The notes under the pieces were generated by a model. That model searched no databases. It was not told where the DNA came from and saw only the letters and a program-made list of their open reading frames with translations. DNA of 59,394 bases, filler included. It is 6 parts of 6 records of this genome, joined end to end, with 100 filler letters (N's around TTAATTAATTAA, not from the genome) between each part and the next. Parts side by side here need not be neighbours in the genome. Positions count along the whole stretch, not along the records: positions 24,456 to 43,848 come from SRR31156797_14151; 5 more parts are not named here. One strand, given 5' to 3'. The position numbers were made by a program, and so were the translations under genes. Shown piece by piece: positions 24,356-46,602 of this stretch (positions are counted from its first letter, which is position 1; every line of letters begins with the position of its first letter).

Positions 24356-24455
24356 NNNNNNNNNNNNNNNNNNNNNNNNNNNNNNNNNNNNNNNNNNNNT
24401 TAATTAATTAANNNNNNNNNNNNNNNNNNNNNNNNNNNNNNNNNNNNNNNNNNNN
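24356..24455. other. Artificial contig spacer
   Basis: N run with TTAATTAATTAA. Confidence 0.98.
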
Positions 24456-24532
24456 ACGCCTTCATGGCGCAGAAACAGGTGTTTTCCGGTTTAAAGGTTG
24501 TTTGAAGCGGGGCAAAAGACCGCCTTGTATCC

Positions 24533-24587
24533 AAAAAAAAGCTACGACCGCCCTTCTCCTTTTCTAGGATATAGCGCCTTCGTGGCT
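24533..24587 (-). promoter_or_regulatory. Leader terminator element, copy 1 (AGCCACGAAGGC...GTCGTAGC-U8)
   Basis: Lies downstream of TTGACA-N17-TAAAAT (24680-24652). A further truncated 5' arm CGCCATGAAGGCG is at 24469-24457. Confidence 0.6.
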
Positions 24588-24662
24588 ATGATTATAATTA
24601 TGAATAAATTATGAATAAATTATGGACATTCCATCCATATAATTTCATTATATTTTATGGTA

Positions 24663-25475
24663 TCAGCTAAGTCTTGTCAAGGGTTTTTGTTGAAAAAAAC
24701 TGATGAGTTTTTCAAGTTCGATGGCGTAAGGCCGTGCATCCAGAGGTTTTCCCTCAAGGCATACCGATTGAATATGGCCATGATGCTCCATGACGCCGAT
24801 CACCGGAACCCCCAGTTCATCCAACTTGGTCTCCATCAAGTTTTTCTGTTCACCGGACGTGATCTTGTTCAGGATGACGCCTTGAAAACGGGCGCCGGAC
24901 GTCTGGGTCAACGCCATGACCTTTGCTCCGAGGGATATGGATTCCAGAGAGGGTTCAACTACACCGATCACAAGATCAACGCCGGTTTCCACGCCTCTTC
25001 CGAAATGCTCTACGCCGGCTTCCATGTCCACCAAGACGATTTCATCGGATGCGGGTTGGAGTTTTTTAAGGAACTCCCGGGTCACGGTTCCCATGGGGCA
25101 GGCGCACCCTTCCATGGCCTGATGAATTTTCCCGGTGGCCGCCAATGCAACGCCGTTTTTTCGCACCACGAATCCGGACGGAATATCATGGGTAGCAATG
25201 CCCGCCTTCTCCCATATGCTCATGGCCGGTTCGCTTTCGCCGGCGGAAAATTTTGCGATCATCTTTTTTTGAACGCTCTTTTTCCCCCCTACCAGATCCA
25301 TGAGCGGTTGCGGCGGCTGTTCAAAGCCCAGCATCCAGAATAAGCTTGAATTGGATTCATCTGAATCCAAAACGAACACCTGTTTGCCGCTACGATTGAA
25401 TGTACCCGCCAACAATGCCGTGATGGTGCTCTTTCCACTTCCCCCTTTGCCGCACAAACATATCTTCATAGTCAA
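24663..25475 (-). CDS. cooC: CooC/AcsF-like nickel-insertion ATPase
   Basis: GKGGSGKS, DSDESN, GKIH...GCACP and DMEAGVEHFGRG motifs. Confidence 0.8.
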   Translation of the reverse strand: MTMKICLCGKGGSGKSTITALLAGTFNRSGKQVFVLDSDESNSSLFWMLGFEQPPQPLMDLVGGKKSVQKKMIAKFSAGESEPAMSIWEKAGIATHDIPSGFVVRKNGVALAATGKIHQAMEGCACPMGTVTREFLKKLQPASDEIVLVDMEAGVEHFGRGVETGVDLVIGVVEPSLESISLGAKVMALTQTSGARFQGVILNKITSGEQKNLMETKLDELGVPVIGVMEHHGHIQSVCLEGKPLDARPYAIELEKLISFFQQKPLTRLS

Positions 25476-25498
25476 TGCCTCCTTCTAAGGTTTTATAA

Positions 25499-26104
25499 TC
25501 ATGAATATTTATCTGTAAAAGGGTCCTTACCGTTCGGGAACATGGCGGAAAATGCCTCCGAAGCCCCGAGTTCCTGAAGGGTGCAAAAATGCATTCCCTT
25601 TTTGGAGCCTGTCATCATGAGGGGTTTTGCCTTTTCAATATCGAGGCCGCCATCCGGTTTCAGGACATCATCGTCCACCTCAAGACTGAGAACCTTGCCT
25701 ACAAGAAGTACATATTGCTCTTCCTCCAATTCCCTTTGAAGTTCGCATTCCATCCAGGCGTAGCACCCCGCAATCCCGGGTGGTTCAACCAATCGAGAGG
25801 ACTTTTCGTCCAGGCCCGCCGCTTCGAATTCATCCACTTCAGGAGTGCTGTACCGGGCCGTGGGGATCACTTTATCCTGCATGGCCACTCCCGCCAGATT
25901 CAATACAAACTGCCCGGTCTCCCTTATATTTACCAGGGTATCCCGTTTTTTGGCGGATGCCGCGCAGATTAGCTCCAGAGGCCGCAATATGGGCATTACA
26001 CAGGACCAGGGCGCAATATTTCGAATGCCCTCCCGGCTGATGGTGGAGATAAATGTCACGGGCAGGGGCATCAATCCTTCACGCATAAACGGTTTTAGAA
26101 GCAT
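25499..26104 (-). CDS. Flavin reductase-like FMN-binding protein
   Basis: PLPVTFIST..NIAPWS, DTLVNIRETGQFVLN and WMEC motifs; AAGGAG RBS places the start at 26104. Confidence 0.88.
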   Translation of the reverse strand: MLLKPFMREGLMPLPVTFISTISREGIRNIAPWSCVMPILRPLELICAASAKKRDTLVNIRETGQFVLNLAGVAMQDKVIPTARYSTPEVDEFEAAGLDEKSSRLVEPPGIAGCYAWMECELQRELEEEQYVLLVGKVLSLEVDDDVLKPDGGLDIEKAKPLMMTGSKKGMHFCTLQELGASEAFSAMFPNGKDPFTDKYS

Positions 26105-26124
26105 GATATTCTCCTTTCTCTCGC

Positions 26125-26179
26125 AAAAAAAAAGCCACGAAGGACTCTCCCCCCTATGGAGGATGTCGCCTTCGTGGCG
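26125..26179 (-). promoter_or_regulatory. Leader terminator element, copy 2 (CGCCACGAAGGCG...CCTTCGTGGC-U9)
   Basis: Perfect 10-bp stem ending about 20 nt before the start codon; promoter TTGACA(26295-26290)-N17-TACAAG upstream. Confidence 0.7.
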
Positions 26180-26521
26180 TCTCATTATTTCCGGAAATGA
26201 ATGTGGCTTTTGGTTTAATCGTCGGCCCTGTTGCGGCCGTGCAGATTTCATGCTCTGCTTTGAGCCCTTGTAACCAAGGCCCGTGTTTTTGTCAAGAGTG
26301 AAAAAGCCTTTCCTTTCTTGTTGACAAAACATGGATTCTCGGATATTCGGTTGTCTTTGGAAATGCGCTGTATGAAACAGCGTCTGCGGTTATTTGAGCA
26401 AGAATTCAACCAGGGTGCATACCCGTACGGAAGCAGTTCGGCATTGATTCGTACTGTTGGAGCTGTTTCACCTATTGTTTGACGGGATTGTCGCATCCGG
26501 AATTGTCCAAAACCGGAGTAG

Positions 26522-26577
26522 AGCCATGAAGGCATTTTTTTCTGCGGATGAAACCCGCGGCCGTCATGGCTTTTTTT
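26522..26577 (+). promoter_or_regulatory. Leader terminator element, copy 3 (AGCCATGAAGGC...GCCGTCATGGC-U7)
   Basis: 11 of 12 bp paired; lies between TTGACA(26321)-N17-TATTCG and the methyltransferase/NAS operon. Confidence 0.7.
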
Positions 26578-26661
26578 ATTTCAAGGCCGGAATCAGAGGG
26601 CCTCGTCCATGGCTGCCCATTTCTTTTGGAACGAAAAGCGTAAAACCGAGATGGTGTTTAA

Positions 26662-27405
26662 ATGGGACGGAAAAAGGGGTCTATCCAAAAATACTGGGAC
26701 TGGAGAAGCTGCACATATCCATATGATGAGGACAAATCGGAGCGGATTGCCGAAACCTGGGAAAATATTTTGGCCGGTCTGGTGGCGGGCACCCCGGGAA
26801 GACGGGCTATCGACATGGGAACGGGGACGGGCCAATTCGCCATCTATCTGGCGCGGCTGGGCTTTCAGGTCGCCGGCATCGATCTTTCGGAAAAAATGCT
26901 CCGGAAAGCGAGGGAGCATGCTGATGATTACAACCTGGATATCGAATTTCAACGGCAGGATGCTGAAAACCTTCGGTTCAAGGACAATACCTTCGATGTG
27001 GTCGTATCGAGGAACCTTCTGTGGACTCTCCCGAATCCCGGTAAGTCCCTTCGGGAATGGAGACGGATCATGAAACCTGATGGCGCGCTGGTTGTAAGCG
27101 ACGGCATGTGGATGAACTACACTTGGAAACGGGTTCACCATCTTGCGTTCAAGATTGTCAGAGGAATGCTCAATAACGGAAGCATGCTCTCCCTGCGGTT
27201 TTTCCTCGCCTATGCCGGTCTTCAAAAAAACCTCCCTTTTTATGAAGGAATAGGTCTTACCCAAATGCAAACACTTTTTCAAGTCGCCGGGTTCAGGGAA
27301 ATCAAATCACATGACACCACATATTTCGATACAAACCCTTATGGAAAGGATAGATTACAACAAAGAAATGATCTCCCTTTCTTTATTGTTCATGCCAGAA
27401 AATAA
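26662..27405 (+). CDS. Class I SAM-dependent methyltransferase
   Basis: IDMGTGTG, GIDLSEKML, DAENL, FDVVVSRNLLWTLP and MKPDG motifs. Confidence 0.9.
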   Translation: MGRKKGSIQKYWDWRSCTYPYDEDKSERIAETWENILAGLVAGTPGRRAIDMGTGTGQFAIYLARLGFQVAGIDLSEKMLRKAREHADDYNLDIEFQRQDAENLRFKDNTFDVVVSRNLLWTLPNPGKSLREWRRIMKPDGALVVSDGMWMNYTWKRVHHLAFKIVRGMLNNGSMLSLRFFLAYAGLQKNLPFYEGIGLTQMQTLFQVAGFREIKSHDTTYFDTNPYGKDRLQQRNDLPFFIVHARK

Positions 27406-27469
27406 GCATCATCGGCTAACCTCGTTTACAGGTTTTTTGGGAACACCCGTTTTTTCAAGGAGCAGCCCC

Positions 27470-28354
27470 ATGCATGATATCAACTATTTTCACGAGCACG
27501 AACTCAAAGATCATGATTTTCTGGGCTGTTGCAAGGACTGCCGCGCCAGTCTGAACATCATCAAACCCCACATTCTGGCATTTGCCGAGAAAATCCGAAA
27601 ATATACGCGTCGAATGCTGGAGGACCTCCCGCCCGACGACCTCTACCGCCTGTATCAGCTGTTGGACGATCTGGCCCACATGGATGCGGGGGCGCACCTG
27701 GCGGCCCTGATCCTGAAGGAAGAAGAGATCAAATCCGTGCTGCCGGTCATACGGACCTATTATGCCGCATTCTTCTCCATTCATGAGGAACGCTTGGCAA
27801 AGGCCGTGGCCGCCGCCGGCGATCCCTGGGAAAGCCTTTCGAAATTCCCCCTTTATCCACGGTATGAAACACTGATCAAAAACCAGATGGCAGCCATGCC
27901 CAGCCCTTTCCCCAACAAGCTGGCCTTCATCGGATGCGGTCCCGTTCCCATGAGCCTCATCCTCATGAACCGCCTATTCGGGATACGATCCCTGGGGTTT
28001 GAAACCTCCCGGGAAAGCGTTCGATCGGCAAGGGCCGTAATTCAAGCCCTGGGACTGGAAAGCCATATCGAGATCATTCACGGGGATGACCTCATGCTCA
28101 AGGGTGTGGGCTGTGATGCGGTCCTGGTGGCGGCACTGGCGGAACCCAAAGAGCGGATATTTCGAAACCTGAGGAAAATCCTGTCTGCAAAAAGCAACCA
28201 TGTCCCGGTTATTTACAGGACTTACACCGGCATGCGGGCCGTTTTGTATGAACCGGTCAGCGAATCGGATGTCAAAGGATTCAGGATTGTTCAAAAGATC
28301 TTTCCCACCGGCCGGGTCAACAACACCACCATCTTTGCCGAACTGGAGAATTGA
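27470..28354 (+). CDS. Nicotianamine synthase-like protein 1
   Basis: FPLYPRY, FIGCGPVPMS, VLVAALAEPK, YRTYTGMRAVLY and VNNT motifs; AAGGAG RBS before ATG 27470. Confidence 0.85.
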   Translation: MHDINYFHEHELKDHDFLGCCKDCRASLNIIKPHILAFAEKIRKYTRRMLEDLPPDDLYRLYQLLDDLAHMDAGAHLAALILKEEEIKSVLPVIRTYYAAFFSIHEERLAKAVAAAGDPWESLSKFPLYPRYETLIKNQMAAMPSPFPNKLAFIGCGPVPMSLILMNRLFGIRSLGFETSRESVRSARAVIQALGLESHIEIIHGDDLMLKGVGCDAVLVAALAEPKERIFRNLRKILSAKSNHVPVIYRTYTGMRAVLYEPVSESDVKGFRIVQKIFPTGRVNNTTIFAELEN

Positions 28355-29166
28355 TGGATACGACCTTTTCCACCATAAAAAATGAATTTCTCGGAATCGA
28401 TGCTTTGCTGAAGGATCTGACCCGGAATGAAATCGAGAAGGCGCCCGAGAGTATTTATCATACCCATCTGGCGGGACTCAACCGGCTGGCGGCAACCCCC
28501 GTGTCGGAGAAGGTCCTTGGAAGATTGATCTCCGACGAAACCTTGTCCCCGGCCATTGCGCGCATCTCCCGCCTCAAAAGGTTTATCGGGCTGAATATGG
28601 AAATCCAAGCCGCCCAATCCGTTGTTGCCGATTCCGATCCTTGGGCCAGAATCGAGCAATTCCCCTATTTTCCCAATTACGTGGCCCTGGCCCGCATGGA
28701 ATACGGGGGCGCCGGGCTTCGGCCCGAAGACCGGGTGGTTTTCCTGGGAAGCGGCCCCCTTCCCCTCAGTCTGGTCTGCCTTTCAAAGGGATACGGCGTT
28801 CAGGGCGTGGGAATTGAACGGGACGAACGGATGGCGGCCCTTTCAAGGGCGCTCATTGGTAAACTGGGGCTGGACCATGGCATTTCCGTGGTCCATGGAA
28901 ACCACTTCGACCTGCCCCTGAAAGGGCCCTGCAACCTCATTATGGTGGGGGCCGACGCTTCCCCCAAAGGCGCCATTTTCGCCCATTTGGCAACGGTGCT
29001 TGCATCCGGGCAAATGATTTCCTATCGGATCTATGAGAAGGGCTTGAGACGTCTTCTGGACGACCAGTCCATGTTTCAGCCGCCGCCGGAATTCGTGGAA
29101 CGGGCCCGCGTCCGTCCAACGCCCCCCGTGAACAACACCACGGTATTTGCGGTTAAAGCCGGTTAG
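28354..29166 (+). CDS. Nicotianamine synthase-like protein 2
   Basis: FPYFPNYVALARME, FLGSGPLPLS, YRIYEKGLRRLL and VNNT motifs; TGATG overlap. Confidence 0.85.
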   Translation: MDTTFSTIKNEFLGIDALLKDLTRNEIEKAPESIYHTHLAGLNRLAATPVSEKVLGRLISDETLSPAIARISRLKRFIGLNMEIQAAQSVVADSDPWARIEQFPYFPNYVALARMEYGGAGLRPEDRVVFLGSGPLPLSLVCLSKGYGVQGVGIERDERMAALSRALIGKLGLDHGISVVHGNHFDLPLKGPCNLIMVGADASPKGAIFAHLATVLASGQMISYRIYEKGLRRLLDDQSMFQPPPEFVERARVRPTPPVNNTTVFAVKAG

Positions 29167-29377
29167 GCGGGTTACATTTTTTGCCCTTTTGTGGACATCT
29201 TTTGTCCCCAGTTGCCCATCAGATAAATTTGAATGAAAGCAAAACATTGAAATAATTAAAAATTCCTTTCCCCAACCGGTTGCATGGTTTTTGCAACGTC
29301 AAAAGTAATTCCGGAAGCTGAAATTCGTGTTCGCCGTAACGCTCAAAAACATCTCTAAGGGATAGATGGGGGTATTC

Positions 29378-32020
29378 ATGAAAAACCGTCAAGACAATAT
29401 TCAGACCTTCACGGTTCGCACTATCCTGACTTGCTGCTTCTGTCTTCTGTTGCCCTCTCTTTCGGGTGCCGCTACCTTTCATGTACGATTGGACGGCGGC
29501 ACGTACCATCAATGTAATGGAACGGCCGATGCGCCGTATCCGGGGGAAGGCACGGGGAAAACCTGTGCCTGGTCGCACCCTTTCCAGGCATTGGATGACC
29601 GGGGAAACTGGCGTATCAAGGGGGGCGATTCGCTGATCATCCATTCGGGGCGTTACCGAATGGGCTTTGGCGCACCCAATACCGGATGGTGTGAAGCCGC
29701 AGGGTCCTATGATTGCCATCTCCCCCCCTTGCCGTCAGGGCCTGATGCTCAGCATCCCACGCGCATTCTGGGGAGTACCTGGGACCGGGGTTGTACGGAT
29801 CCCCCCCAATTATGGGGTTCCGAAAGAGCGTGGCAGATCATCAGCCTGGACGGGACGGACAACGCAATTGTCAGCTGCCTCGAGCTGACCGACCACTCCG
29901 GTTGCGTGGAACACCACTCCAATACCCAGGTAAAGTGCCAAAGAGACACACCACCCTATGGAGATTGGGCCGGTGCGGGTATTCATGCATCGGATTCATC
30001 CCATGTGTCGTTGAGCAACCTGAACATTCACGGCATGGCGGATCGGGGCATATATGCCGGGCGTATTTCGGATTGGCGCGTGGATAATGTTCGGATCGCC
30101 GGAAATGGATGGGCCGGTTGGGATGGGGATATACCGGGGGATGATGCCAATACCGGCAATATACATTTCAGGAACTGGCTTGTGGAATGGAACGGTTGTG
30201 CGGAAAGCTACCCCGAGGGGCTGCCCAACAACTGCTGGGCACAGACCGCCGGGGGGTACGGCGACGGGGTCGGCACCGGGTCCACCGGAGGAGACTGGAT
30301 CATCGAGGATTCCATTTTTCGGTACAATACTTCCGACGGGCTTGACCTGCTTTATGCCCGCTTTGACTCCCGCATCCACATGAAACGGGTCCGGGCTTAC
30401 GGAAATGCGGGGAACCAGATCAAGGTCAATGGGCCCACCGCCATTGAAAACGCACTTTTGATCGGCAACTGCGGCTATTTTCAGGGAAAAGATTTCACTT
30501 ATCATGTGGATCCCTGCCGCGCCGGAGGCGCTGCCGTCTCCCTCAATATGAGGCGTGGAAACAGCGTTTCACTGATTAATTCAACTATTTCCGGGGAAGG
30601 GGATTGTCTCGGAACCATTGAATGCTCGGACTCCATGGGATGTGATGGATCCGAATCGGTCATCATTCAAAACAACATATTCAGAGGAAACAAGGAATTT
30701 CTCTCCCCAACGGACATCACCTGCTATCTTTGGTGGGATCAAGAGGGTTTTTACGACGCACAAATCGATTACAATGTGGTTTTCGGCGCAAAAATCGGTA
30801 CTTTCGGGCTGTCAGATAATGATATCAACAAGGACCCGCTCTTCATGGATGCGGATTTGAGCACTTTTAAGGGTCGTCTCCGCAAAAATTCCCCGGCCCT
30901 CAAAAGCGGACTCCCCGCAGGCGGGCTGAATGGTTTGGTGCCCACCGAAGACCTGGTAAATACTCCGAGACCCATGGGGAGTGCCGTGGATCGCGGTGCC
31001 TATGAAAAAAGGGTCGGGCCCCTTATCATCGATCACACCTGTACGGACATTTCCCAAATCCCCTCCTACTGGATTGAACAGGCCAAACAATCGACCCTGC
31101 ATTACGCCCATACCTCCCATGGCGGGCAGATCTGCCAGGGTGCTGAAAATCTTGAAGGGTTCGATGCAACCTATGGCTTTACAAGGCGCATCAGCGGCAC
31201 CGAAGGGCTTCCCCCGTCGGAAACCCCACCGGCCCTCCGCATCTACGACGGCAACCCGCCCCATACCTACATCACTCCGGAACGTTACTGGGATTCCGAC
31301 GACGGAAGGGAGAGCACCCGATCCGTTGCCCATACGGGACATTACGACTTTTCCATGTGGGCATGGTGCGGCCAGGTCTCCGGCGCCACACAGGCCTACA
31401 TTCAGCGCTATCTGGATACCATGGACCGGTTCGAGACGGAATACCCCGGTATGGGCTTTATCCATATGACCGGCCATCTGGACGGGAGCGGTTCAACGGG
31501 AACGCTGCATCAACGAAACGAACAGATCCGGGCCTACTGCCGGGCCAACAATAAAATCCTTTTCGATTTCGCCGATATTGAGCGTTATAACCCGGACGGT
31601 ACGGATTTCCTGGATCTTTCCGCGGACGATGAATGTAACCATGAGCATGGAAACTGGGCCGATGAGTGGTGTGCAAAAAACCCGGACTCCCCCTTGTGCA
31701 GGGCGTGCAGCTGCAATCATTCGAAACCCCTCAACTGCAACCTGAAGGCAAGGGCCTTTTGGTGGATGATGGCGCGCCTGGCGGGGTGGACCCCCTCCCC
31801 CGCCCCATGTCCCGATTTTCCCGGCCCTTCGCCGGTCATCCGGGATGTGGATTTTCCCGGGCAAGCCCATTGCACCTATTCGGATAGCATTTCCATTACC
31901 ATCGGTCCCAATGTCCATATCCCGTCGGATGCCACGGCTATTTTCCAAGCGCCCATCATCATCATAAAGAGCCCCTTTCACCCGGAGAAAGGGGCGACCG
32001 TTCGATTTGTGGCGAAATAG
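29378..32020 (+). CDS. Secreted Cys-rich multidomain protein: parallel beta-helix, choice-of-anchor-Q-like segment, second alpha/beta domain, short C-terminal beta domain
   Basis: Signal peptide; Asn/Gly-rich coils (FRYNTSDGLDLLY, GNAGNQIK); DPLF...SPA...DRGAYE; IIDHTCTD..YAHTSHGGQ. Confidence 0.7.
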   Translation: MKNRQDNIQTFTVRTILTCCFCLLLPSLSGAATFHVRLDGGTYHQCNGTADAPYPGEGTGKTCAWSHPFQALDDRGNWRIKGGDSLIIHSGRYRMGFGAPNTGWCEAAGSYDCHLPPLPSGPDAQHPTRILGSTWDRGCTDPPQLWGSERAWQIISLDGTDNAIVSCLELTDHSGCVEHHSNTQVKCQRDTPPYGDWAGAGIHASDSSHVSLSNLNIHGMADRGIYAGRISDWRVDNVRIAGNGWAGWDGDIPGDDANTGNIHFRNWLVEWNGCAESYPEGLPNNCWAQTAGGYGDGVGTGSTGGDWIIEDSIFRYNTSDGLDLLYARFDSRIHMKRVRAYGNAGNQIKVNGPTAIENALLIGNCGYFQGKDFTYHVDPCRAGGAAVSLNMRRGNSVSLINSTISGEGDCLGTIECSDSMGCDGSESVIIQNNIFRGNKEFLSPTDITCYLWWDQEGFYDAQIDYNVVFGAKIGTFGLSDNDINKDPLFMDADLSTFKGRLRKNSPALKSGLPAGGLNGLVPTEDLVNTPRPMGSAVDRGAYEKRVGPLIIDHTCTDISQIPSYWIEQAKQSTLHYAHTSHGGQICQGAENLEGFDATYGFTRRISGTEGLPPSETPPALRIYDGNPPHTYITPERYWDSDDGRESTRSVAHTGHYDFSMWAWCGQVSGATQAYIQRYLDTMDRFETEYPGMGFIHMTGHLDGSGSTGTLHQRNEQIRAYCRANNKILFDFADIERYNPDGTDFLDLSADDECNHEHGNWADEWCAKNPDSPLCRACSCNHSKPLNCNLKARAFWWMMARLAGWTPSPAPCPDFPGPSPVIRDVDFPGQAHCTYSDSISITIGPNVHIPSDATAIFQAPIIIIKSPFHPEKGATVRFVAK

Positions 32021-32239
32021 TCCGTTTCAGATGAATCGCCCATGCCGCCACCCCTTTTCCCAACGCGTGAAAGCCGTTTCCAGGGGGATAAATTTCAAAA
32101 CAAGAATTACCGGAATCCGTATTTCAAGCTTGACACCCTGCTCGGCGCTGTTGTATAGATCGCGCCAGCATAATGCGTAATACGAAATTGCGCAGTACAA
32201 ACAGAGCAGAACCTTAATATAGACATATTTGTAATTTTA

Positions 32240-32294
32240 AAGCCAGGAAGGCTTATCCGGAATGAATTTCGGAAGGCTTCCCGGCTTTTTTTTT
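32240..32294 (+). promoter_or_regulatory. Leader terminator element, copy 4 (AAGCCAGGAAGGCTT...AGGCTTCCCGGC-U9)
   Basis: Lies between TTGACA(32130)-N18-TATAGA and the TonB receptor start. Confidence 0.7.
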
Positions 32295-32378: not shown

Positions 32379-34427
32379 ATGAAGAATGTGAAATACCTGA
32401 TATTATGTTTATTGATCGGCAACCTGCTTTTTTTTTCACCGGCCTGGGGAGATGAAACCTCGGATGGGGAAACAATCTCCGGAAAGATGGACACCGAAAA
32501 GTCAAAACCGGTGCAAATGGATGAAATAGTGGTTACCGCCACCAAGTATGAATCCTCCACCAGGGACATACCGTCAAACGTGACGGTGGTCACGGGGGAA
32601 GAGATCCGGGCACAATATCTGCCGGACAACGACATCGGGGACGCCTTGCGCAACATATCGGGCCTCACCACCCGCCGCGCCTATGCGCCCTTTCCCGCCT
32701 ACATCAACATTCGCGGGGTGGGGAACAAGGGGACGGTTATCCTGGTAAACGGCATCCCCACCAACTGGGAAATCACCCAGGCCATTCCCCCCGGGAACAT
32801 CGAGCGGGTGGAGATCGTGAGAGGACCCGCATCGGCCCTTTACGGGGCCAATGCCAGCGGCGGGGTGATCAACATCATTACCAAGGAAGGGGGAGAAGGG
32901 ATTAACGGCAGCGTCAGCGGGGGGTACGGCACTTTCAATACCTGGCGGGTCCGGGCCGCAACCGACGGCACCGTGGATAAATTTCATTATTCCTTTGCCG
33001 GTTACAAGGATAAATCCGACGGAACCAATGTGGTCAAGAACACGGTGTTGCCCAGCGTCACCATGATCGGGGACTGTTCCTATGACAAATGGGCAGGGTC
33101 GCTCACCGCCGCCTACGACGTGAACGAAAAAGGGAAAATCTCCTTTCTTTTCAATTATTTTAAGGACGAATACACACGGGGCCGACCCAATGTGGGAGGG
33201 GACTGGGACCGTTATTTTACCAGCCTGATTTACGACCAGGCTTTTGGAGATATGTTTCTGTTCAAGGGGTATGTGGGGTTTCGGTATGATGATCTGCTCC
33301 ACCGTTACGACAAGGGGAATCAGAATTACGAACTCAGACAGACCCGGAATACCGATTATCGGGAAATCCCCATGGAGCTTCAATTGACGGCCCACCTGGG
33401 CTTTGGCAATGCGCTCACGGGCGGTTTTTTTTACAATTACCAGGATACGGATCAGGATTATCACAATCCCGCGGGCGCTTTGATCAGCCACAACCGCTAC
33501 AAGGTACGCACCGTGGCCGGGTACCTTCAGGACGTCTGGAAACCCATGGAAAAACTGGCCATCACGGCGGGCCTCCGTTACGACAACTGGCGAAATTACG
33601 ACAATACCTTTACGAAATACGTGGATGAACATCCGGGAGATCGAACCGACGACAACTGGAGCCCTAAAATCGGCGCCAAATACAACTTCACGGACCGCCT
33701 GGGCCTGTGGGCCAATTATGCGGTGGGATTTAACCCCCCGACCCCCGAGCAGCTCTACGACGACCGGACCAGCGGTGGAAATCCGCGGGAACCGAACCCG
33801 AACCTGCAACCGGAAACCACCCGAAGCTGGGAGCTGGGGGTTGAGAACTGGTTTACGGACAGTCTCAGCGCCAAGATGGTGGGATTTTACAACTATACGG
33901 ACGACAAGATTATTTCCTGGTTCAATGACGAGAATATCTGGATTAACAAAAACATCGGCCGAAGCAAATCTTACGGTGTGGAACTGGATATGTTTTTTCA
34001 GCCCACGGAAAACTGGATCGTCAATGCCAACTATACCTGGAACCCGGCTAAAATCGACAGCAATCCGTCAAACCCCGGGCAGGAAGGGAACGAACTCCCC
34101 TTTTCACCCAAGCACAAGGCCAACCTGAGCGTTACCTACCAGTGGGTCAGAAATTTTGAACTGAGCGGTTTTTTTCGATACCTGAGCAAACAGCAGACCA
34201 ACGAAGCCAATACGGAATATACCAAAGGGGGCGAAGCGCGTTACATGCCGTCCTCTTTTGTGGTGGATTTCAAGGGCGTCAAGCATTTTCCCGTGGCGTG
34301 GGGGGCGCTTAAAAATATCGATGTGGCCCTGGCCGTGGACAATGTTTTTAACGCCAATTACCGGACCTTATACATCTATGAAGATCCGGGACGGACCTTT
34401 TTCGGGGAAGTCAAGTTTTTCTTTTAA
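32379..34427 (+). CDS. TonB-dependent receptor
   Basis: TonB box DEIVVTA; IERVEIVRGPASALYG..GGVINIITK; NPNLQPE; terminal Phe; AGGAGG RBS. Confidence 0.95.
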   Translation: MKNVKYLILCLLIGNLLFFSPAWGDETSDGETISGKMDTEKSKPVQMDEIVVTATKYESSTRDIPSNVTVVTGEEIRAQYLPDNDIGDALRNISGLTTRRAYAPFPAYINIRGVGNKGTVILVNGIPTNWEITQAIPPGNIERVEIVRGPASALYGANASGGVINIITKEGGEGINGSVSGGYGTFNTWRVRAATDGTVDKFHYSFAGYKDKSDGTNVVKNTVLPSVTMIGDCSYDKWAGSLTAAYDVNEKGKISFLFNYFKDEYTRGRPNVGGDWDRYFTSLIYDQAFGDMFLFKGYVGFRYDDLLHRYDKGNQNYELRQTRNTDYREIPMELQLTAHLGFGNALTGGFFYNYQDTDQDYHNPAGALISHNRYKVRTVAGYLQDVWKPMEKLAITAGLRYDNWRNYDNTFTKYVDEHPGDRTDDNWSPKIGAKYNFTDRLGLWANYAVGFNPPTPEQLYDDRTSGGNPREPNPNLQPETTRSWELGVENWFTDSLSAKMVGFYNYTDDKIISWFNDENIWINKNIGRSKSYGVELDMFFQPTENWIVNANYTWNPAKIDSNPSNPGQEGNELPFSPKHKANLSVTYQWVRNFELSGFFRYLSKQQTNEANTEYTKGGEARYMPSSFVVDFKGVKHFPVAWGALKNIDVALAVDNVFNANYRTLYIYEDPGRTFFGEVKFFF

Positions 34428-34435
34428 CGGCTGCC

Positions 34436-36142
34436 ATGTCCATTCATCTCCACAAACGCACCCGGCCCGGCCGGGAGAAGGGTGCGGATCGGGTCCGCCC
34501 CAACAAGGGATGCGGCTTTCTTAAGGGATCTTTGCTGCTGATGTTGTTTTTGCTCATGGCCCCGGGGTGTTCAAAGGAGACCGAATCGAAAACACCCCCC
34601 CCTTCGGAACAGGTACTTCGAATCGGAACCGCCATGAAAATCAAACAGGCCAATCCGGTGGCGGATTATTATTACAATATCCTGGCCATGGTCATGACCC
34701 ATGATTCCCTGGTGCGGTTTGATGAAAAACTGAATCCGATTCCCCAACTGGCCCGAAAATTCGCATCCGATGAGTCTGCCAAAATCTGGACCTTTGAGCT
34801 GACCCCGGATGCCAAGTGGCATGATGGACGGCCGGTAACGGCCGACGATGTGGTCTTTACGTTTCGATACATGGCCCGAAACCATGGATCGGGAGCCTGG
34901 GTGGGCCATCTCATCGAAAATATTGAAGCCCGGGAAAATTGCGTCATTTTCCGGCTGAAAAGACCGTGCAGCAGATTTCTGCTGAATGCCGGTTTCGTGG
35001 TCCGGATTCTGCCGCGCCATATCTGGGAAAATATTTCCCATCCACGCCGGACCAAGGATACGGCTGTCACCGTGGGATGCGGCCCCTACCGGTTTGCGGG
35101 TTTTGACCGTAGCGCGGGGACCATCCGTTTCCATGTCAATGCCGACTACCACGGTTTTGTCCCCCAAGCGGACCGGGTCGATTTTTGCACCTACGGGACC
35201 ATGGATCTGCTGGCCCTGGCCCTGATCAAGGGGAGGGTGGATCTTTACTACCAGTACGCTTCCGGCTTGCCGGTTCCTTATGTGGATAAGCTCAAGGCCG
35301 AACCGGGTCTGGATTGCATGGAAGCGGCATCCATGGGAATTCCGGCGGTGCTGGGTTTCAACCTTTCCCGTCCATTGGTAAAATCCATCAAAGTCCGTCG
35401 GGCCGTTGCCCTGGCCGTGGATTATGCCCATATGAACAACTGTCTCATGAAAGGGAAAGGAAGGATTCCTTCCCCGGGACTGGTACCGCCGTCCTTTCCG
35501 GTTCATATGCATATGGCGCCATGGGTTCAAGATCTTGATCAAAGCCGCTCTCTTCTGGAATCCGAAGGGTGGGTGGATACAAACGGGGACGGTCTTTTGA
35601 ACACGCCCCAAGGCGAAAACGTCCAACTGACCCTTCTGGTTCGATCCGATTTATGGGGAGAAGCACAGATGGTAAAGCTGCTGGCCCGTGATTTTGAACG
35701 GGTGGGCATCGGACTGAAAGTTCGATCGGCGGATCTCTCCACCTATCTGGCATTTTTAAAGGGAGGAGACTACGACCTGGTGCTCTTTCGCACCACCCCC
35801 TGGGGCATGGTGATGCATGCGGGGTATGGCAGCGGATATTTTGACGCGAAAACATCCGGGCATCTCAACATGTGCCGTCTGAAGGATCCCGGATTTTCAA
35901 CCCTGTGCGACCGAATCTTGAGCACTCGCGATCCCCGAACCTTGAAAACCCTTTACACGAAACTGCAAAAATATTATGCGGAACACCTCCCCGCCGTGGC
36001 CCTGTGCTGGGGCCGAAGCTTCTTCCCTTACTCGGGAAAATGGCAAGGGTTTCAGATCAACCCCCTTGAAGGGGGGTTGGCAAACCGATTTTCCTGGCGG
36101 AGACTCAAGCTTTTAAATAGGGTTAAACCGGAGGGACCTTAG
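34436..36142 (+). CDS. Family 5 ABC substrate-binding lipoprotein (Nik/Opp/Cnt type)
   Basis: Lipobox APGC; WHDGRPVTADDVVFT and GCGPY motifs. Confidence 0.9.
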   Translation: MSIHLHKRTRPGREKGADRVRPNKGCGFLKGSLLLMLFLLMAPGCSKETESKTPPPSEQVLRIGTAMKIKQANPVADYYYNILAMVMTHDSLVRFDEKLNPIPQLARKFASDESAKIWTFELTPDAKWHDGRPVTADDVVFTFRYMARNHGSGAWVGHLIENIEARENCVIFRLKRPCSRFLLNAGFVVRILPRHIWENISHPRRTKDTAVTVGCGPYRFAGFDRSAGTIRFHVNADYHGFVPQADRVDFCTYGTMDLLALALIKGRVDLYYQYASGLPVPYVDKLKAEPGLDCMEAASMGIPAVLGFNLSRPLVKSIKVRRAVALAVDYAHMNNCLMKGKGRIPSPGLVPPSFPVHMHMAPWVQDLDQSRSLLESEGWVDTNGDGLLNTPQGENVQLTLLVRSDLWGEAQMVKLLARDFERVGIGLKVRSADLSTYLAFLKGGDYDLVLFRTTPWGMVMHAGYGSGYFDAKTSGHLNMCRLKDPGFSTLCDRILSTRDPRTLKTLYTKLQKYYAEHLPAVALCWGRSFFPYSGKWQGFQINPLEGGLANRFSWRRLKLLNRVKPEGP

Positions 36143-36145
36143 AGA

Positions 36146-37132
36146 TTGGCGCTTTTACGACATAAAATAGGGCGCTACGGGCTTTGCATTTTCTTTGTTT
36201 TAAGCCTGAATTTTTTCATCGTACACCTGCTTCCCGGTGATCCGTTGGTTCATCTGGTGGGAGAAGAGACCTATTTTCAGCTTCAGGGCGGAAATCCCGA
36301 GGCCCTTTCGGAACTTCGCGCCCAATACGGCTTGGACAGGCCTCTTTATGAACGGTTTTTCGTCTCCATGACCCATATTCTTTCCTTTCGTCTGGGTTGG
36401 TCCTCTCATTACGGAAAACCCGTGGTGGAAATTCTGTGGTATCGCCTCAAGTGGACCCTGTTGCTCCTCTTTCCGGCCATGGTTCTATCCGCGGTTTTCG
36501 GCCTGCTCCTGGGGTGTATTTGCGGTCGACCCGGAAAAAACACGCCGGATGGTTTCATGACGCCCCTTTGGCTTACGGTCTATTCGGTTCCCGCCTACTG
36601 CCTGGCTTTTCTGCTGTTGCTCCTTTTCGCCCATCTGGGAGATTTTTTCCCCCTGGGAGGCATGCGGGAAGTGTCCCGGACGGGGAATGCGGTTTTCGGA
36701 GATGTGTTGCGACATATGGTCCTCCCCTTGATGGTTCTTGTGCTGCATACCACGGCCTACCTCTATATGATCATGCGAAGCACCATACGTCAGGCTTTCG
36801 GAGCGGCCCATGTGTTGACGGCCGCGTCCAAGGGGCTGACGCCCGGGCGGGTGTTGATGCGCCATGTCCTTTTAAATGCCCTTCCCCCTTACATTGCGGC
36901 CGTGGCCATCAATTTCGGTTTTATTGCGGGGGGGGCGCTTTTGGTGGAGGTGGTCTTTTCCTGGCAGGGAATGGGGTCCCTCATGTACGAGGCGGTGTTG
37001 AGCAGGGATTATCCCATTCTATCGGGCTGCTTCCTCTTCCTCTCCTTTTCGGTCATAGGCTTTAACATCATGGCGGATCTTTTGTGCGGTTTCATCGATC
37101 CACGGATGAGGGATGATGCCGCGATTATGTAA
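36146..37132 (+). CDS. ABC permease (NikB/OppB type)
   Basis: LPGDP, YGLDRPL, VEVVFSWQGMG and RDYP motifs. Confidence 0.9.
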   Translation: MALLRHKIGRYGLCIFFVLSLNFFIVHLLPGDPLVHLVGEETYFQLQGGNPEALSELRAQYGLDRPLYERFFVSMTHILSFRLGWSSHYGKPVVEILWYRLKWTLLLLFPAMVLSAVFGLLLGCICGRPGKNTPDGFMTPLWLTVYSVPAYCLAFLLLLLFAHLGDFFPLGGMREVSRTGNAVFGDVLRHMVLPLMVLVLHTTAYLYMIMRSTIRQAFGAAHVLTAASKGLTPGRVLMRHVLLNALPPYIAAVAINFGFIAGGALLVEVVFSWQGMGSLMYEAVLSRDYPILSGCFLFLSFSVIGFNIMADLLCGFIDPRMRDDAAIM

Positions 37133-38915
37133 AGGGCGGGTCATATGGGCCCCTTCCGCATGCCTGTGTCTGCTTCTCGCGGCGGCCGCATTTCCAGGGC
37201 TCCTGGCCCCTTTTTCCCCCGGAGAGCTGGCGTTACCCTACATGCCGCCCGCCGGTCGGCACCTTCTGGGAACGAACCACATCGGGCAGGACCTGTTCAG
37301 CCAACTCATCTATTCGGCCCGCATGACCCTGGCCGTATCCCTTGGTGCCTCTTTTCTGGCCACGGGCATGGGAACCCTTGTGGGGTTGACGGCGGGTTAT
37401 AGGAGAGGGCGGTGGGACGGGTGGCTCATGCGCATAACCGATATATTCCTGCTCCTGCCGGGGTTACCCCTGATCATTCTACTGGCGGCCCACATGGATT
37501 CAGGAATGACCGGTATTGCCATGGTCATCGGCATGACCGCGTGGCCCGGCACGGCCCGGGTGATCCGCGCCAATGTGCTTCAGATAAGCCGGCGGAACTT
37601 CATTCGAAGCGCCGAGGTCATGGGGGCCGGGCCTCTGTATATCATGTTCGCCCACATCCTGCCCAATATCTTTCATGTGGTCCTGGCCAAAACCGTTTTA
37701 GCGGCGGCATCGGCCATGGTGACGGAAGCCGGCGTCAGTTTTCTGGGATTGGGGGATCCCCAGTACAAAAGCTGGGGCGCCATGTTGCACGAGGCTTTTA
37801 CCAACGGCGGTCTGTTGAACGGATGTTACGGGTGGTATCTCCCCCCCATCATCTGTATTTCCATGACGGTTCTCTGTTTGACCCTGGCGGGACGGAAATT
37901 GATGGGCGATGATGATCAAACCCTTCTCCCCGGACGCGCCGTGGGTCATGGTCCGCTGGGGTCCCTGAAACCCCGAAACGACCCATGCCTAGAGATAACG
38001 GATTTGTCCGTTGATTTCGCCAATCCCCACGGAACCCCCGTTCGGGCCATGGATCGCGTGAACCTGACGGTGAACCGGGGCCGGCATCTGGCGGTCATCG
38101 GGGAAACGGGCAGCGGAAAAAGCGTGCTGTTGCTGGCCCTTATGGGCTTGCTCCCTGAAAACGGTTCAGCCACGGGGGCGATCCGTTTTTGTGGACAAAA
38201 TCTTTTGGACCTTTCCGAAAGGGCATTTTGCAGGCTTCGGGGTCGATATGTGGCTTACGTTCCCCAAGGGGCCGGTCAGGCCCTGAACCCTTTGATTCGG
38301 GTGGGAGGGCAAGTGGCGGAGCCCCTTCGAGTTCATGAACGGATGTCCCGAAAGGAGGCCCTTCAAAAGGCCGTGGAGATGCTGGATCGAATGGGGATTC
38401 CCGATGCCCACGACCGAAGCCGGGAATATCCCCATCAATACAGCGGCGGCATGATCCAGCGGGCTTTAGGGGCCATGGGACTGATTTCGGGGGCGTCTCT
38501 CATACTTCTGGATGAGCCCACCAAAGGGTTGGATTCCGAAAACAAAGAGGCGATTTTTAATCTTCTTGAAGAATATGCGGAGGAAACCTTTGTGATGGTG
38601 ACCCATGACCTGCTTTTTGCAAAGCGGTTTTCCCACGAAGTGGCGGTTATGCTGAATGCTCGAATCGTGGAAAAGGCGCCTTCGCGCGTTTTTTTTGAAA
38701 CCCCCCTGCACCCTTATGCCAGGGCCCTGCTGAAGGCCCAGCCGAGCCATGGCATGCAGGTGGAAACCCCCTTTCATTCCGAACCATTCTCTGCATGGGG
38801 CTGCCCCTTTGCCGACCGCTGTCCACAGGCGGTTGGAAGATGCGGTCACATGCCTCCCATGATCAATATGGGCAAACGTTCGGTGCGGTGCTGGCTTTAT
38901 GATCCTGAAAACTGA
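37113..38915 (+). CDS. Fused ABC permease and ATPase (OppC-OppD type)
   Basis: HLLGT..GQD and HILPN, then GETGSGKS, YSGGM, DEPT, HPY and the Cys-rich C-terminus in one frame. Confidence 0.88.
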   Translation: MMPRLCKGRVIWAPSACLCLLLAAAAFPGLLAPFSPGELALPYMPPAGRHLLGTNHIGQDLFSQLIYSARMTLAVSLGASFLATGMGTLVGLTAGYRRGRWDGWLMRITDIFLLLPGLPLIILLAAHMDSGMTGIAMVIGMTAWPGTARVIRANVLQISRRNFIRSAEVMGAGPLYIMFAHILPNIFHVVLAKTVLAAASAMVTEAGVSFLGLGDPQYKSWGAMLHEAFTNGGLLNGCYGWYLPPIICISMTVLCLTLAGRKLMGDDDQTLLPGRAVGHGPLGSLKPRNDPCLEITDLSVDFANPHGTPVRAMDRVNLTVNRGRHLAVIGETGSGKSVLLLALMGLLPENGSATGAIRFCGQNLLDLSERAFCRLRGRYVAYVPQGAGQALNPLIRVGGQVAEPLRVHERMSRKEALQKAVEMLDRMGIPDAHDRSREYPHQYSGGMIQRALGAMGLISGASLILLDEPTKGLDSENKEAIFNLLEEYAEETFVMVTHDLLFAKRFSHEVAVMLNARIVEKAPSRVFFETPLHPYARALLKAQPSHGMQVETPFHSEPFSAWGCPFADRCPQAVGRCGHMPPMINMGKRSVRCWLYDPEN

Positions 38916-39585
38916 AAATCTGCATAAAAGCTTTAATACCTACCGGCGGCATGCCGAAGGACGTTTTGTGCTCAATGGGGTCCGCTTTCTCCTGGATGCG
39001 GGAGAAACCATCGGAATTTCAGGAAAAAGCGGCGCGGGCAAGAGCACCCTGGCCCTCATTTTGTGCGGTCTCGAAAAACCCGACCGGGGGGAGGTGTGGT
39101 TGGGGGAAACTTCCGTATGGCCCCGAGCCGGACGGCGGGGGCGTCAACACATTCATCGCCGCCTCCAGATCCTGTGGCAGCATCCCGAAACCGCTTTCAA
39201 CCCCCGCTGGAAACTGGCGAGAAGTCTGCTGGAACCCTTGCGCATTCATGGTTTGCCCGCTCCTTCGAATATTTTGAAAGGGCCATTGGATGAGCTTCAT
39301 TTGCCCCCCGATGTTCTAAAACGATACCCCCTTCAGTTGAGTGGAGGGGAGTTACAGCGACTGGCCCTGGCCAGGGCCCTCATGCTGAAACCGGAGGTTC
39401 TCATCCTGGATGAACCCACCAGCATGCTCGATGTCCTGACCCAGGCCCGGATCATTCGGCTTCTTCAAGGCATTCAGCGAAAAACCGGTTTGTCCTATGT
39501 ATTTATCAGCCACGACAGGGACTTGGTGGACCGGTTCAGTCACCGGGCCTTTCTTTTGAGTGAAGGATTGTTGAAACCTTTGTGA
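38899..39585 (+). CDS. ABC ATPase (NikE/OppF type)
   Basis: GKSGAGKS, LSGGELQR, LDEPTSMLD and ISHD motifs. Confidence 0.92.
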   Translation: MILKTENLHKSFNTYRRHAEGRFVLNGVRFLLDAGETIGISGKSGAGKSTLALILCGLEKPDRGEVWLGETSVWPRAGRRGRQHIHRRLQILWQHPETAFNPRWKLARSLLEPLRIHGLPAPSNILKGPLDELHLPPDVLKRYPLQLSGGELQRLALARALMLKPEVLILDEPTSMLDVLTQARIIRLLQGIQRKTGLSYVFISHDRDLVDRFSHRAFLLSEGLLKPL

Positions 39586-39594
39586 GATTCAAAA

Positions 39595-40452
39595 ATGACC
39601 ATGAATAATGGAAAAGGCCGCCACTTGAAATTGCATAATAGCGCCGGGCGGGGCCCCCGGGCCAAGGCATGGGCCTCTCAAATGGGCGGCTGGCATGGGG
39701 AAAGAACCGGAACCGGAGGGCCGGTCGACTCCGGAAGTTTCTGGAACGGCTTTGATCTCTGGGAGACCTATGAGCCCTACACGCGCTATCCGGGAAAATT
39801 GATGGCGCCCATTTTAAACTGCATCACGCCGCAAACAACGGTGCTGGACGTGGGTGCGGGCACCGGGGCCCTCACCCTGCCCATGGCCGCCCACGCCCGC
39901 TCGGTAACGGCGGTTGAACCTTCTTCTGCTCAATGTGCGCGTCTCCTGAAAAACGCCGAACAGCTGGGGTTTGCCAACCTGAAAGTATTGGAAAATCGCT
40001 GGGAAGACGTGCGGGTTCAAGCATTGGAAACCCATGATGTGGTGACCGCCGGCTATTGCCTCTTTATGCCGGAGATTGAACCGGTCCTTTGGAAAATGGA
40101 TCAACTGGCGCGCCGCCGTATTTTCATGGTGCACCTGGCGGATCATGATCTTCAGGAACCCATCCGGCGGATTTTGGGCCGACGGACGGCCCTTCCCGAC
40201 CACCGGATGTTGCATAATGTTCTAACGGAATTGGGATGGAAGGTTCAAAGCACGATTTTCACCCGGAATTTTGAACTGCCCCTGCGCCTTCAAATGGACA
40301 TGTTCCGCTACGCACAACATTTCAGCGACGGGGAATTGAACGAACTGGAAAGTTACCTTCAAAAAAGTGGGCGGGTCCGCATGGGGCAGGGAATTTCATG
40401 GGTGAAACGGCAATACCGCGATGCCCTCATAAGCGTCAAAAAAAATGATTAA
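39595..40452 (+). CDS. Class I SAM-dependent methyltransferase
   Basis: VLDVGAGTGAL, AVEPS, RWED and HDVV motifs. Confidence 0.85.
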   Translation: MTMNNGKGRHLKLHNSAGRGPRAKAWASQMGGWHGERTGTGGPVDSGSFWNGFDLWETYEPYTRYPGKLMAPILNCITPQTTVLDVGAGTGALTLPMAAHARSVTAVEPSSAQCARLLKNAEQLGFANLKVLENRWEDVRVQALETHDVVTAGYCLFMPEIEPVLWKMDQLARRRIFMVHLADHDLQEPIRRILGRRTALPDHRMLHNVLTELGWKVQSTIFTRNFELPLRLQMDMFRYAQHFSDGELNELESYLQKSGRVRMGQGISWVKRQYRDALISVKKND

Positions 40453-46583: not shown

Positions 46584-46602
46584 CGACTAAAAACATAAAG
46601 AA

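Follow-up and report, generated by a model that had tools for sequence, protein, structure and literature searches.

The region between positions 24,457 and 32,294 of the window raises the question of what a short element that is repeated there controls, and through which agent. The window is here the whole stretch of DNA that was analysed, 59,394 nucleotides of joined contigs, and the element is a terminator-type hairpin whose 5′ arm carries the motif GCC[ANGAA]GGC (brackets enclose a potential loop, and N is a variable base). Our answer, to which we give a probability of roughly 0.6, is that the element is a conserved 5′-leader attenuator of sulfate-reducing bacteria gating genes of nickel/cobalt-type uptake and of a nicotianamine-like chelator, that it would act by antitermination through a dimeric protein, and that DUF3842 is the best candidate for this protein. 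An uncatalogued leader attenuator before metal-uptake units had already been suggested in a preliminary description made from the letters alone, and this core reading is supported by the absence of a match in Rfam, by the leader position and by the set of genes behind the element. Mechanisms of this kind are known, which cannot be said of the RNA family, of its regulon or of the candidate protein.

The exact 11-mer GCCANGAAGGC has five matches in the window against 0.17 expected (standard deviation 0.45, largest count 2; 0 of 100 shuffles reach five), at 24458-24468(-), 24576-24586(-), 26168-26178(-), 26523-26533(+) and 32242-32252(+), and these account for all five copies of the preliminary description. 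Allowing one mismatch brings four more matches, two of which are the opposite-strand reading of the 3′ arms of copies 2 and 3. Copies 1 to 4 each comprise a long interrupted hairpin and then 7-9 U, laid out as an outer stem GCCAnGA/UCnUGGC, a less regular upper stem GGC/GCC, a variable inner hairpin, and the U-run; a G+C-rich hairpin directly before a U-run, the mark of an intrinsic (Rho-independent) terminator, is thus present in all four. Their minimum free energies are -17.5, -30.2, -27.0 and -25.7 kcal/mol, and their fold z scores against shuffles -1.5, -4.9, -4.1 and -3.4, respectively, so that copies 2 to 4 lie far below their shuffles and copy 1 is weak.

Copy 1 (24532-24592, minus strand) was recognised by its fold, by the 11-mer and by the covariance model R1 described below (49.4 bits, E 7e-10); it has the 5′ arm GCCACGAAGGC, an inner hairpin with an AGAAA loop, an imperfect 3′ arm and U8, and lies 71 nt past the stop of a P-loop ATPase gene, upstream of copy 5. 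The latter (24457-24471, minus strand; sequence and 11-mer) is a truncated second 5′ arm, GCCATGAAGGC flanked by C-G, in tandem with copy 1 about 118 nt downstream of it and cut by the scaffold join; similar tandem pairs recur in the relative loci L008, L065 and L085. Both copies sit at the contig edge, and the unit behind them is missing. The join itself, at 24356-24455, consists of two N runs around the linker ttaattaattaa, and the gene order across it is not real. Copy 2 (26125-26184, minus strand; R1 53.8 bits and fold) has a perfect 10-bp outer stem and U9, and its end is followed after 20 nt by an AGGAGA ribosome site and the ATG of a flavin-reductase-like gene. Copy 3 (26517-26579, plus strand; R1 52.9 bits and fold) has the 5′ arm GCCATGAAGGC and the inner loop AUGAAAC, and stands before a methyltransferase/nicotianamine-synthase (NAS)-like operon; copies 2 and 3 lie in one divergent intergenic region. 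Copy 4 (32236-32294, plus strand; R1 53.1 bits and fold), with the 5′ arm GCCAGGAAGGC and the inner loop UGAA, precedes an operon for a TonB receptor and a Nik-like ATP-binding cassette (ABC) importer. The start codons behind copies 2, 3 and 4, which the preliminary description had mentioned, are at 26104(-), 26662(+) and 32379(+). Around copy 4 the order is a stop codon (32020), TTGACA (32130), the leader, the terminator (32294) and the start codon (32379), which fits a leader rather than a terminator of the upstream operon.

The element is not confined to this window. The first NAS-like protein, used as a query, led to 29 loci in Desulfatiglandales (including strain NaphS2), Desulfobacter, Desulfospira and Desulfosarcina, and GCCANGAAGGC is exactly present in 10 of them, always with the same hairpin and U-run anatomy. 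From 21 instances an alignment (A1) and the covariance model R1 were made, both limited to the 11-bp outer stem. In A1, 88.3% of cells pair, against 26-52% in slid controls, and the covariation score of 0.138 (0.072 in shuffles) was reached by none of 500 shuffles. Applied to the window and 75 loci, R1 produced 113 matches with E no higher than 0.001; dropping opposite-strand duplicates and identical copies from overlapping loci left 79 distinct sites, among them variants that the 11-mer misses, for example ACCACGAAGGU...CUUUCGUGGU. The outer stems of the 79 sites comprise 869 cells, of which 719 are Watson-Crick (83%), 72 G-U (8%), 22 A-C and 56 other. The variable base N and its partner form CG at 40 sites, AU at 14, UA at 9, GC at 7 and UG at 5, and are unpaired at 4. 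The covariation of N across all four Watson-Crick types, together with the preference for G-U over A-C, indicates that the terminator helix is selected as RNA, and on this strand. As had been expected, no known family accounts for the element: Rfam 15 (4227 models, including ANTAR-target, PyrR, mini-ykkC, NiCo and cobalamin) gave no match at gathering score in the whole window, and at E up to 10 only three irrelevant weak matches between 24400 and 32500, none of them on a copy. On reading the four window leaders, no upstream stretch complementary to the 5′ arm, of the kind a cis antiterminator would have, was found.

The 5′ arm can alternatively close on itself as a mini-hairpin, and the pair at its closing positions 7 and 17 is GC at 63 sites, GU at 11 and AU at 5, never a non-pair (n=79); the five AU cases include related leaders before a flavin-reductase-type gene, and so represent few independent events. 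Further evidence for this fold comes from outside the arm. In an alignment of the copy-3 leader with three related methyltransferase/NAS-type leaders, a second conserved block forms a hairpin, located right behind the promoter, whose loop is AUGAA or ACGAA. For all 79 sites the preceding 220 nt were scanned for A-N-G-A-A pentaloops on stems of 4-9 bp, hereafter P1, and 48 such hairpins, which the preliminary description does not mention, were found at 45 sites. Their density is 2.74 per kb, compared with a background of 0.121 per kb (window and loci L001-L029, both strands), and the opposite strand of the same upstream regions contains only three. AAGAA, ACGAA, AGGAA and ATGAA are the four commonest loops among the 414 pentaloop hairpins found upstream. 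The closing pair of P1 is C-G in 22 cases, U-A in 19, U-G in 6 and G-C in 1, and in 35 of the 48 cases P1 is separated from the terminator arm by 28-64 nt.

Two leaders of the window have a P1 in the strict sense. That of copy 3 (26365-26383, plus strand; 7-bp stem, AUGAA pentaloop, gcgctgtATGAAacagcgt) lies 135 nt upstream of the element and is kept in loci L016 and L039 with stem bases changed, and that of copy 4 (32174-32194, plus strand; 8-bp stem, ACGAA pentaloop, tgcgtaatACGAAattgcgca) lies 43 nt upstream. For copy 2, sequence reading points to a possible partner hairpin (26241-26258, minus strand; 5-bp stem, 8-nt loop GCAUGAAA), a loose ANGAA variant that fails the strict pentaloop rule; proper ANGAA hairpins are found in the related flavin-reductase-type and methyltransferase leaders of L003, L048, L021 and L023. 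Upstream of copy 1 there is no ANGAA hairpin. A similar loop returns inside the terminator. GAA stands in the inner apical loop of 34 of the 79 sites, compared with 16 of 160 terminator-like hairpins of a generic kind from those loci. In 32 of the 34 cases this second GAA follows the first by 14-18 nt, and CCA(N)GAAGG is found again, as a genuine stem-loop, in several inner hairpins. The recognised unit is a hairpin Y-[ANGAA]-R (Y, pyrimidine; R, purine), of which GCC[ANGAA]GGC in the terminator arm is the minimal copy, one that can arise only where the terminator has not formed. The recurrence of the ANGAA pentaloop upstream and in inner hairpins backs the mini-hairpin fold beyond what the window alone offers, and with it the earlier proposal that the 5′ arm has an alternative fold excluding the terminator. 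The core of that proposal stands; the extension by flanking pairs, which had also been put forward, is close to chance, since at least one extra pair is present at 38 of 79 sites (30.5 +/- 2.3 in shuffles) and at least two at 19 (16.7 +/- 2.1).

The position of the element relative to genes is that of a leader. Neighbouring open reading frames (ORFs) were taken within 600 nt, with a length of at least 120 aa, or at least 60 aa if open-ended at the locus end. The downstream ORF is co-directional at 67 of the 79 sites, convergent at 7 and absent at 5, and the upstream one co-directional at 34, divergent at 26 and absent at 19. Element and downstream ORF are separated by a median of 91 nt, a figure that rests on crude calling (longest frames, greedy overlap removal) in which a few distances are artefacts. 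The 67 co-directional downstream genes, together with the 45 sites that have no same-strand gene upstream, argue for leaders and not for terminators at gene ends, as the preliminary description had held.

The genes behind the element are, as far as their family matches tell, a nickel/cobalt-type uptake and chelator set. In three complete genomes, 24 downstream ORFs, chosen by eye from ORF lists and including a few second-in-operon or upstream ORFs, comprise 11 TonB receptor/Plug proteins, two methyltransferases, two DUF3842 proteins, one each of SBP_bac_5, CbiM, DUF4198, FecCD, DUF3786, GNAT and DsbA, and two with no Pfam match. Another 32 ORFs, selected in the same way from 27 further genomes of the order, comprise 12 TonB receptor/Plug proteins, four DUF4198, three SBP_bac_5, two FmdE, one CbiM, one CobN-type fragment, one amino-acid permease, one weak DUF6802 match below the cut-off and seven with no Pfam match. 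CbiM was matched above the cut-off of its NCBIfam model. The set of metal-uptake genes that had been suggested from the window is recognisable elsewhere, with TonB receptors, NikA-like binding proteins, CbiM, DUF4198 and the NAS-like operon behind the sites.

We infer from these features a mechanism that comprises regulated readthrough, a protein reader, a metal signal and a direction of control. The order of parts would be a promoter; P1, a Y-[ANGAA]-R hairpin, at most sites; a linker of mostly 28-64 nt; GCC[ANGAA]GGC as the 5′ arm of the terminator; and then an inner hairpin of variable form whose loop often contains GAA, the 3′ arm, the U-run and the ribosome site. As the terminators seem able to work unaided, termination would be the default state. 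Some factor acting in trans, in all likelihood an RNA-binding protein dimer, would clamp P1 and the 3-bp mini-hairpin, P2, and by doing so withhold the 5′ arm from the terminator, so that RNA polymerase would read on; antitermination would thus be protein-dependent. DUF3842, as the candidate factor, would bind the RNA at nickel scarcity and release it when nickel-bound, since binding at metal scarcity is the sensible direction for uptake genes.

This logic resembles that of ANTAR antitermination. In the RNA targets of ANTAR proteins the loops are hexanucleotides whose first base is A and whose fourth is G. Dual-hairpin leaders regulated in this way (EutV, NasR and AmiR targets) are said to have been described by Ramesh and co-workers in 2012. 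Common to both are two small hairpins with conserved loops, one of them overlapping the 5′ side of the terminator, antitermination by binding of a dimer (proposed in our case), and leaders before several units of one regulon. The ANTAR-like logic of the preliminary description is retained, since 45 of the 79 sites have an upstream ANGAA hairpin in addition to the one that overlaps the terminator. The loops, already set apart from those of ANTAR targets in that description, are pentaloops A-N-G-A-A closed by Y-R and not hexaloops; moreover, P2 has 3 bp, the linker is long, the regulon is one of metal uptake, and ANTAR genes do not co-occur with the element. A second parallel is the PyrR attenuator (RF00515), in which an alpha/beta protein resembling an enzyme reads a hairpin whose purine-rich loop is closed by C-G pairs, and thereby chooses between terminator and alternative fold. 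Unlike the present proposal, binding of PyrR favours termination, and in our material there is neither an Rfam match nor a pyr gene; no phosphoribosyltransferase was among the fold matches listed for DUF3842.

Which protein could be the reader, for which the preliminary description names no candidate, was approached through co-occurrence, in two samples. In the phylum sample (151 genomes, R1 at E up to 1e-4), DUF3842 is encoded by 58 genomes overall and by 35 of 35 R1-positive ones, and the RNA occurs in 0 of the 93 genomes without DUF3842. In the order sample (61 genomes), 43 have DUF3842 and the RNA, 8 only DUF3842, 4 only the RNA and 6 neither. ANTAR proteins (PF03861) are present in 61 of 151 genomes and in 15 of 35 R1-positive ones, with no association, and were rejected as reader on these figures. 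The element also stands just before the DUF3842 gene itself in G001 (L036) and G004 (L053), and beside it, by coordinates, in other genomes; extra DUF3842 copies adjoin TonB, ExbD, FmdE and flavin-reductase genes.

The nickel regulator NikR shows the opposite pattern. NikR_C is found in 72 genomes of the phylum sample, with 6 of 35 R1-positive (one weak) against 66 of 116 R1-negative, and in 9 of 58 DUF3842-positive against 63 of 93 DUF3842-negative genomes, so that its distribution is nearly complementary to that of DUF3842 and the RNA. NikR and, on our reading, the element both control genes of nickel/cobalt homeostasis, but NikR represses by binding DNA, and few carriers of the RNA have it. 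In other bacteria NikR controls nik ABC importers and TonB receptors, according to PMC11247825, in which the words leader and terminator are absent. Likewise, the portion of the literature that was accessible on attenuation, antitermination or riboswitches of nickel uptake, in Desulfo- and TonB contexts, contained no paper on such a leader.

DUF3842 (PF12953) is a protein of about 141 aa with at least 5420 homologues, very conserved, with invariant C9, D12, GQGGGIG, GTNA, C73, W82 and H127; C65 is conserved as well. Its model is a three-layer alpha/beta domain (predicted local distance difference test, pLDDT, 80). As a homodimer it reached a prediction score of 0.60, made without an alignment, against 0.00 for the best control; that mark was reached by 21 of 30 solved proteins that form same-chain pairs and by 0 of 23 single-chain ones, and the dimer runs agree in at least 98% of contacts, with a partner pLDDT of at least 88. 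The co-occurrence and the predicted dimer fit a regulator. Sequence searches gave no match to a solved structure (best E 0.29) and no NCBIfam name, and in the part of the literature that was seen the sole match concerned extracellular polysaccharide (EPS) and virulence in Ralstonia. DUF3842 is in our view the best candidate reader, whose RNA binding and nickel signal would follow from the mechanism above. A wider reading would make it a new class of metal-responsive RNA-binding antiterminator that reads pairs of Y-[ANGAA]-R as a dimer and has taken the place of NikR for TonB receptors, for a pathway to a nicotianamine-like chelator and for the import of nickel (perhaps also cobalt) in much of the Desulfobacterota; this we regard as tentative, and as rather less than an even bet.

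Part of the interest of the question lies in the physiology of the carriers, which rely strongly on enzymes that contain nickel, among them CO dehydrogenase/acetyl-CoA synthase and NiFe hydrogenases. To our knowledge, nickel import in the bacteria studied so far is subject to DNA-level repression by NikR, and the known nickel/cobalt riboswitch acts on exporters. Were TonB receptors, importers of the Nik and CbiM types and a nicotianamine-like chelator pathway governed as one regulon by leader RNAs, nickel uptake would have a second mode of control, at the level of RNA, and if the DUF3842-antiterminator reading is true, nickel uptake would be controlled at transcription elongation in a large part of the Desulfobacterota. 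DUF3842, unstudied and highly conserved, gains a testable role; the compact motif Y-[ANGAA]-R could be used to predict nickel-related genes; and the NAS-like cluster of the window is marked as a member of the same metal-uptake regulon.

Several observations weigh against this account. As regards DUF3842, no R1-positive genome of the phylum sample lacks it, but in the order sample 4 of 47 R1-positive genomes are without DUF3842, and all co-occurrence figures are confounded by shared ancestry and incomplete genomes. With filters off, only 5 of 30 unselected DUF3842 loci have the element within 1.5 kb, and the neighbours of the main DUF3842 gene are parA/parB, plsY, pgk and a gene of the metallo-beta-lactamase fold, not metal genes (L089-L118). 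The protein is not notably basic by residue count, and no RNA-binding relative is known among its fold neighbours, which are generic alpha/beta domains: Foldseek returned nucleotide-binding-like domains (best 3ic5, E 4e-4, TM 0.46-0.58), and VIA-align a best Z of 9.1, with a root mean square deviation of 3.7 A over 126 residues, a score that many unrelated domains of alpha/beta type share. As regards the RNA, P2 has just 3 bp, with an extension near chance, and 34 of the 79 sites, window copies 1 and 2 among them, have no strict upstream ANGAA hairpin. The 5′ arm carries about 2 bits of information at positions 8-10 and 12-16, against only 0.5-1.1 bits for the partners of positions 12-17, and this asymmetry is partly ascertainment because the seed was chosen via the 5′ arm; the invariance of that arm, which the preliminary description had noted, is thus nearly complete across the 79 sites and in part a product of the way in which the copies were found. 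The genome-wide R1 search scored only 36-150 candidates per genome, so that its negatives are soft. Finally, nickel is one candidate metal beside cobalt and zinc, as the Nik/Cnt names fall below cut-off and CbiM is named for cobalt.

Among the other explanations, the one that survives best, though we consider it unlikely, is a protein-free riboswitch in which the two tiny hairpins bind a small ligand or metal ion and shift the balance between P2 and terminator. Precedent exists in guanidine-II (mini-ykkC), a bipartite RNA in which a linker of variable length joins two tiny hairpins whose loops are conserved, and the bipartite layout of our element likewise holds with a variable linker, mostly of 28-64 nt; the purine run GAAGG could offer N7 sites to soft metals, and fold searches gave DUF3842 no demonstrable RNA-binding domain. 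The likeness to guanidine-II ends with the loops: its ACGR loops pair together, whereas ANGAA loops have no complementary bases for a loop-loop contact, and the gene context differs. The direction of control is also unfavourable, for stabilisation of P2 means readthrough, and a metal ligand would turn uptake on at high metal. The poor conservation opposite the 5′ arm leaves no two-stranded pocket in the terminator form, and no riboswitch model of Rfam matches. This includes the NiCo (czcD) riboswitch, which shares the theme of nickel/cobalt homeostasis and differs in having a four-way junction and in turning on exporters.

The element might instead be an unregulated terminator or insulator, or a dispersed repeat, duplicated along with paralogous uptake genes. 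Every copy is indeed a competent hairpin with a U-run, copy 1 follows a gene at 71 nt, copy 4 lies between two co-directional operons, 34 of the 79 sites have a co-directional upstream gene, and many have A-rich 5′ flanks and match on both strands. This explanation is nonetheless improbable in view of the orientation of neighbours given above (45 sites without such an upstream gene, 67 with a co-directional downstream one) and of the variety of unrelated gene families before which the element stands. It is kept between orders in which NAS identity is only 57-63%, whereas the leader flanks largely are not; generic terminators of the same loci are without the motif, GAA loops being rare in them; and the upstream ANGAA hairpins would have no role. 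Copy numbers, which were taken from the genomes of relatives, point the same way. The 11-mer occurs 30-66 times per genome in five of them (6.6-9.6 Mb), against 20-32 for a reversed control, which is low, and in three 8-Mb genomes R1 gave 14, 12 and 8 matches on both strands (150 of about 4,650 first-look candidates scored), most of them within tens of kb of the NAS island. A dispersed repeat of the REP, MITE or uptake-sequence type, the outcome that would have undone the initial proposal, was rejected on this low copy number and clustering.

Compared with the leader attenuator read by a protein, pairing of a trans-acting small RNA (sRNA) with the invariant 5′ arm, which would block or promote the terminator, appears very improbable. 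An invariant stretch of 9-11 nt across many leaders does resemble a common seed target, and perfect 3′ arms such as GCCUUCGUGGC are complementary to all 5′ arms; on the other hand, the central N varies freely (C 40, A 18, U 14, G 7), which suits a flipped-out loop base better, and in P1 and some inner hairpins the motif forms the loop of a closed structure, in which an sRNA would find it harder to pair; no candidate sRNA came to light, though no search aimed at one was made. The weakest alternative, an inverted repeat GCCACGAAGG...CCTTCGTGGC bound as duplex DNA by a metal-responsive repressor, has in its favour a palindrome near promoters of metal genes and the precedent of NikR-type operators, which consist of spaced inverted repeats, and is hardly credible given a variable arm spacing (inner region 18-30 nt), the strand-specific excess of G-U (72) over A-C (22), a U-run always on the gene-proximal side, a location 60-165 nt downstream of the putative promoters and not over them, and a 3′ arm that is often degenerate where the 5′ arm is not.

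With respect to the promoters of the window, an exact TTGACA does lie upstream of each full copy, as was first reported; a full promoter-like match is found only before copy 1, the -10 hexamers of the others being weak. The site before copy 1 (24652-24680, minus strand) consists of TTGACA, 17 nt and TAAAAT, has 11 of 12 consensus matches in the promoter scan, and overlaps the 3′ end of the ATPase gene. Those of copies 2 and 4 are putative, come from sequence reading and are absent from the scan list: TTGACA (26295-26290), 17 nt and TACAAG for copy 2 (26267-26295, minus strand), and TTGACA, 18 nt and TATAGA for copy 4 (32130-32159, plus strand), the latter located after the upstream operon's stop (32020) and before the leader. 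The -35 hexamer TTGACA of the copy-3 leader (26321-26326, plus strand), also obtained by reading and with a weak -10, aligns in the relatives L016 and L039, and L019 has TTATTT instead. Between 26267 and 26326 the two exact TTGACA of copies 2 and 3 lie 26 nt apart and point away from each other, as back-to-back promoters of the divergent units.

The unit behind copy 2 (24663-26104, minus strand; PF01613 3.6e-21, PF01656 6.5e-15) contains a flavin-reductase-like gene (25499-26104) and a CbiA/ParA/MinD-type P-loop ATPase gene (24663-25475). That behind copy 3 (26662-32020, plus strand; PF08241, PF03059 twice with 2.9e-23 and 1.7e-24, PF13229) codes for an S-adenosylmethionine (SAM) methyltransferase, two NAS-like proteins and an 884-aa beta-helix protein. 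No opine-dehydrogenase (CntM-type) gene is among the ORFs scanned for this chelator-type operon, and given this its product may differ from the staphylopine-type opines. The unit behind copy 4 (32379-40449, plus strand; Pfam matches) comprises a TonB-dependent receptor, a family-5 binding protein (NikA/CntA-like), a permease, a permease-ATPase fusion, an ATPase and a methyltransferase; the best NCBIfam names of its ABC parts are of the NikA-E, Opp and CntA/C/D/F types, all below the curated cut-offs. The fusion, ORF 37113-38915, has a permease of the NikC/OppC type in residues 1-263 and an ATPase of the NikD/OppD type in residues 290-597.

A few minor observations complete the picture. Three elements, in L038 (G004:C1:2754438-2754502), L009 (17517-17577) and L019 (226-290), are near-perfect palindromes between divergent genes with an R1 match on both strands, and one hairpin may serve two leaders there. 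A 36-codon ORF, 26373-26483(+), starts from an AUG inside the P1 loop of copy 3, is without a clear ribosome site and is probably not a leader peptide. Far from the element, at 43998-48111, a SusC-like TonB receptor gene is followed by a gene of the SusD/RagB family, with a glycoside hydrolase family 3 (GH3) glycosidase further on; the pairing of SusC with SusD is typical of Bacteroidota and unexpected beside Desulfobacterota-like genes, and this stretch may be a mis-binned contig.

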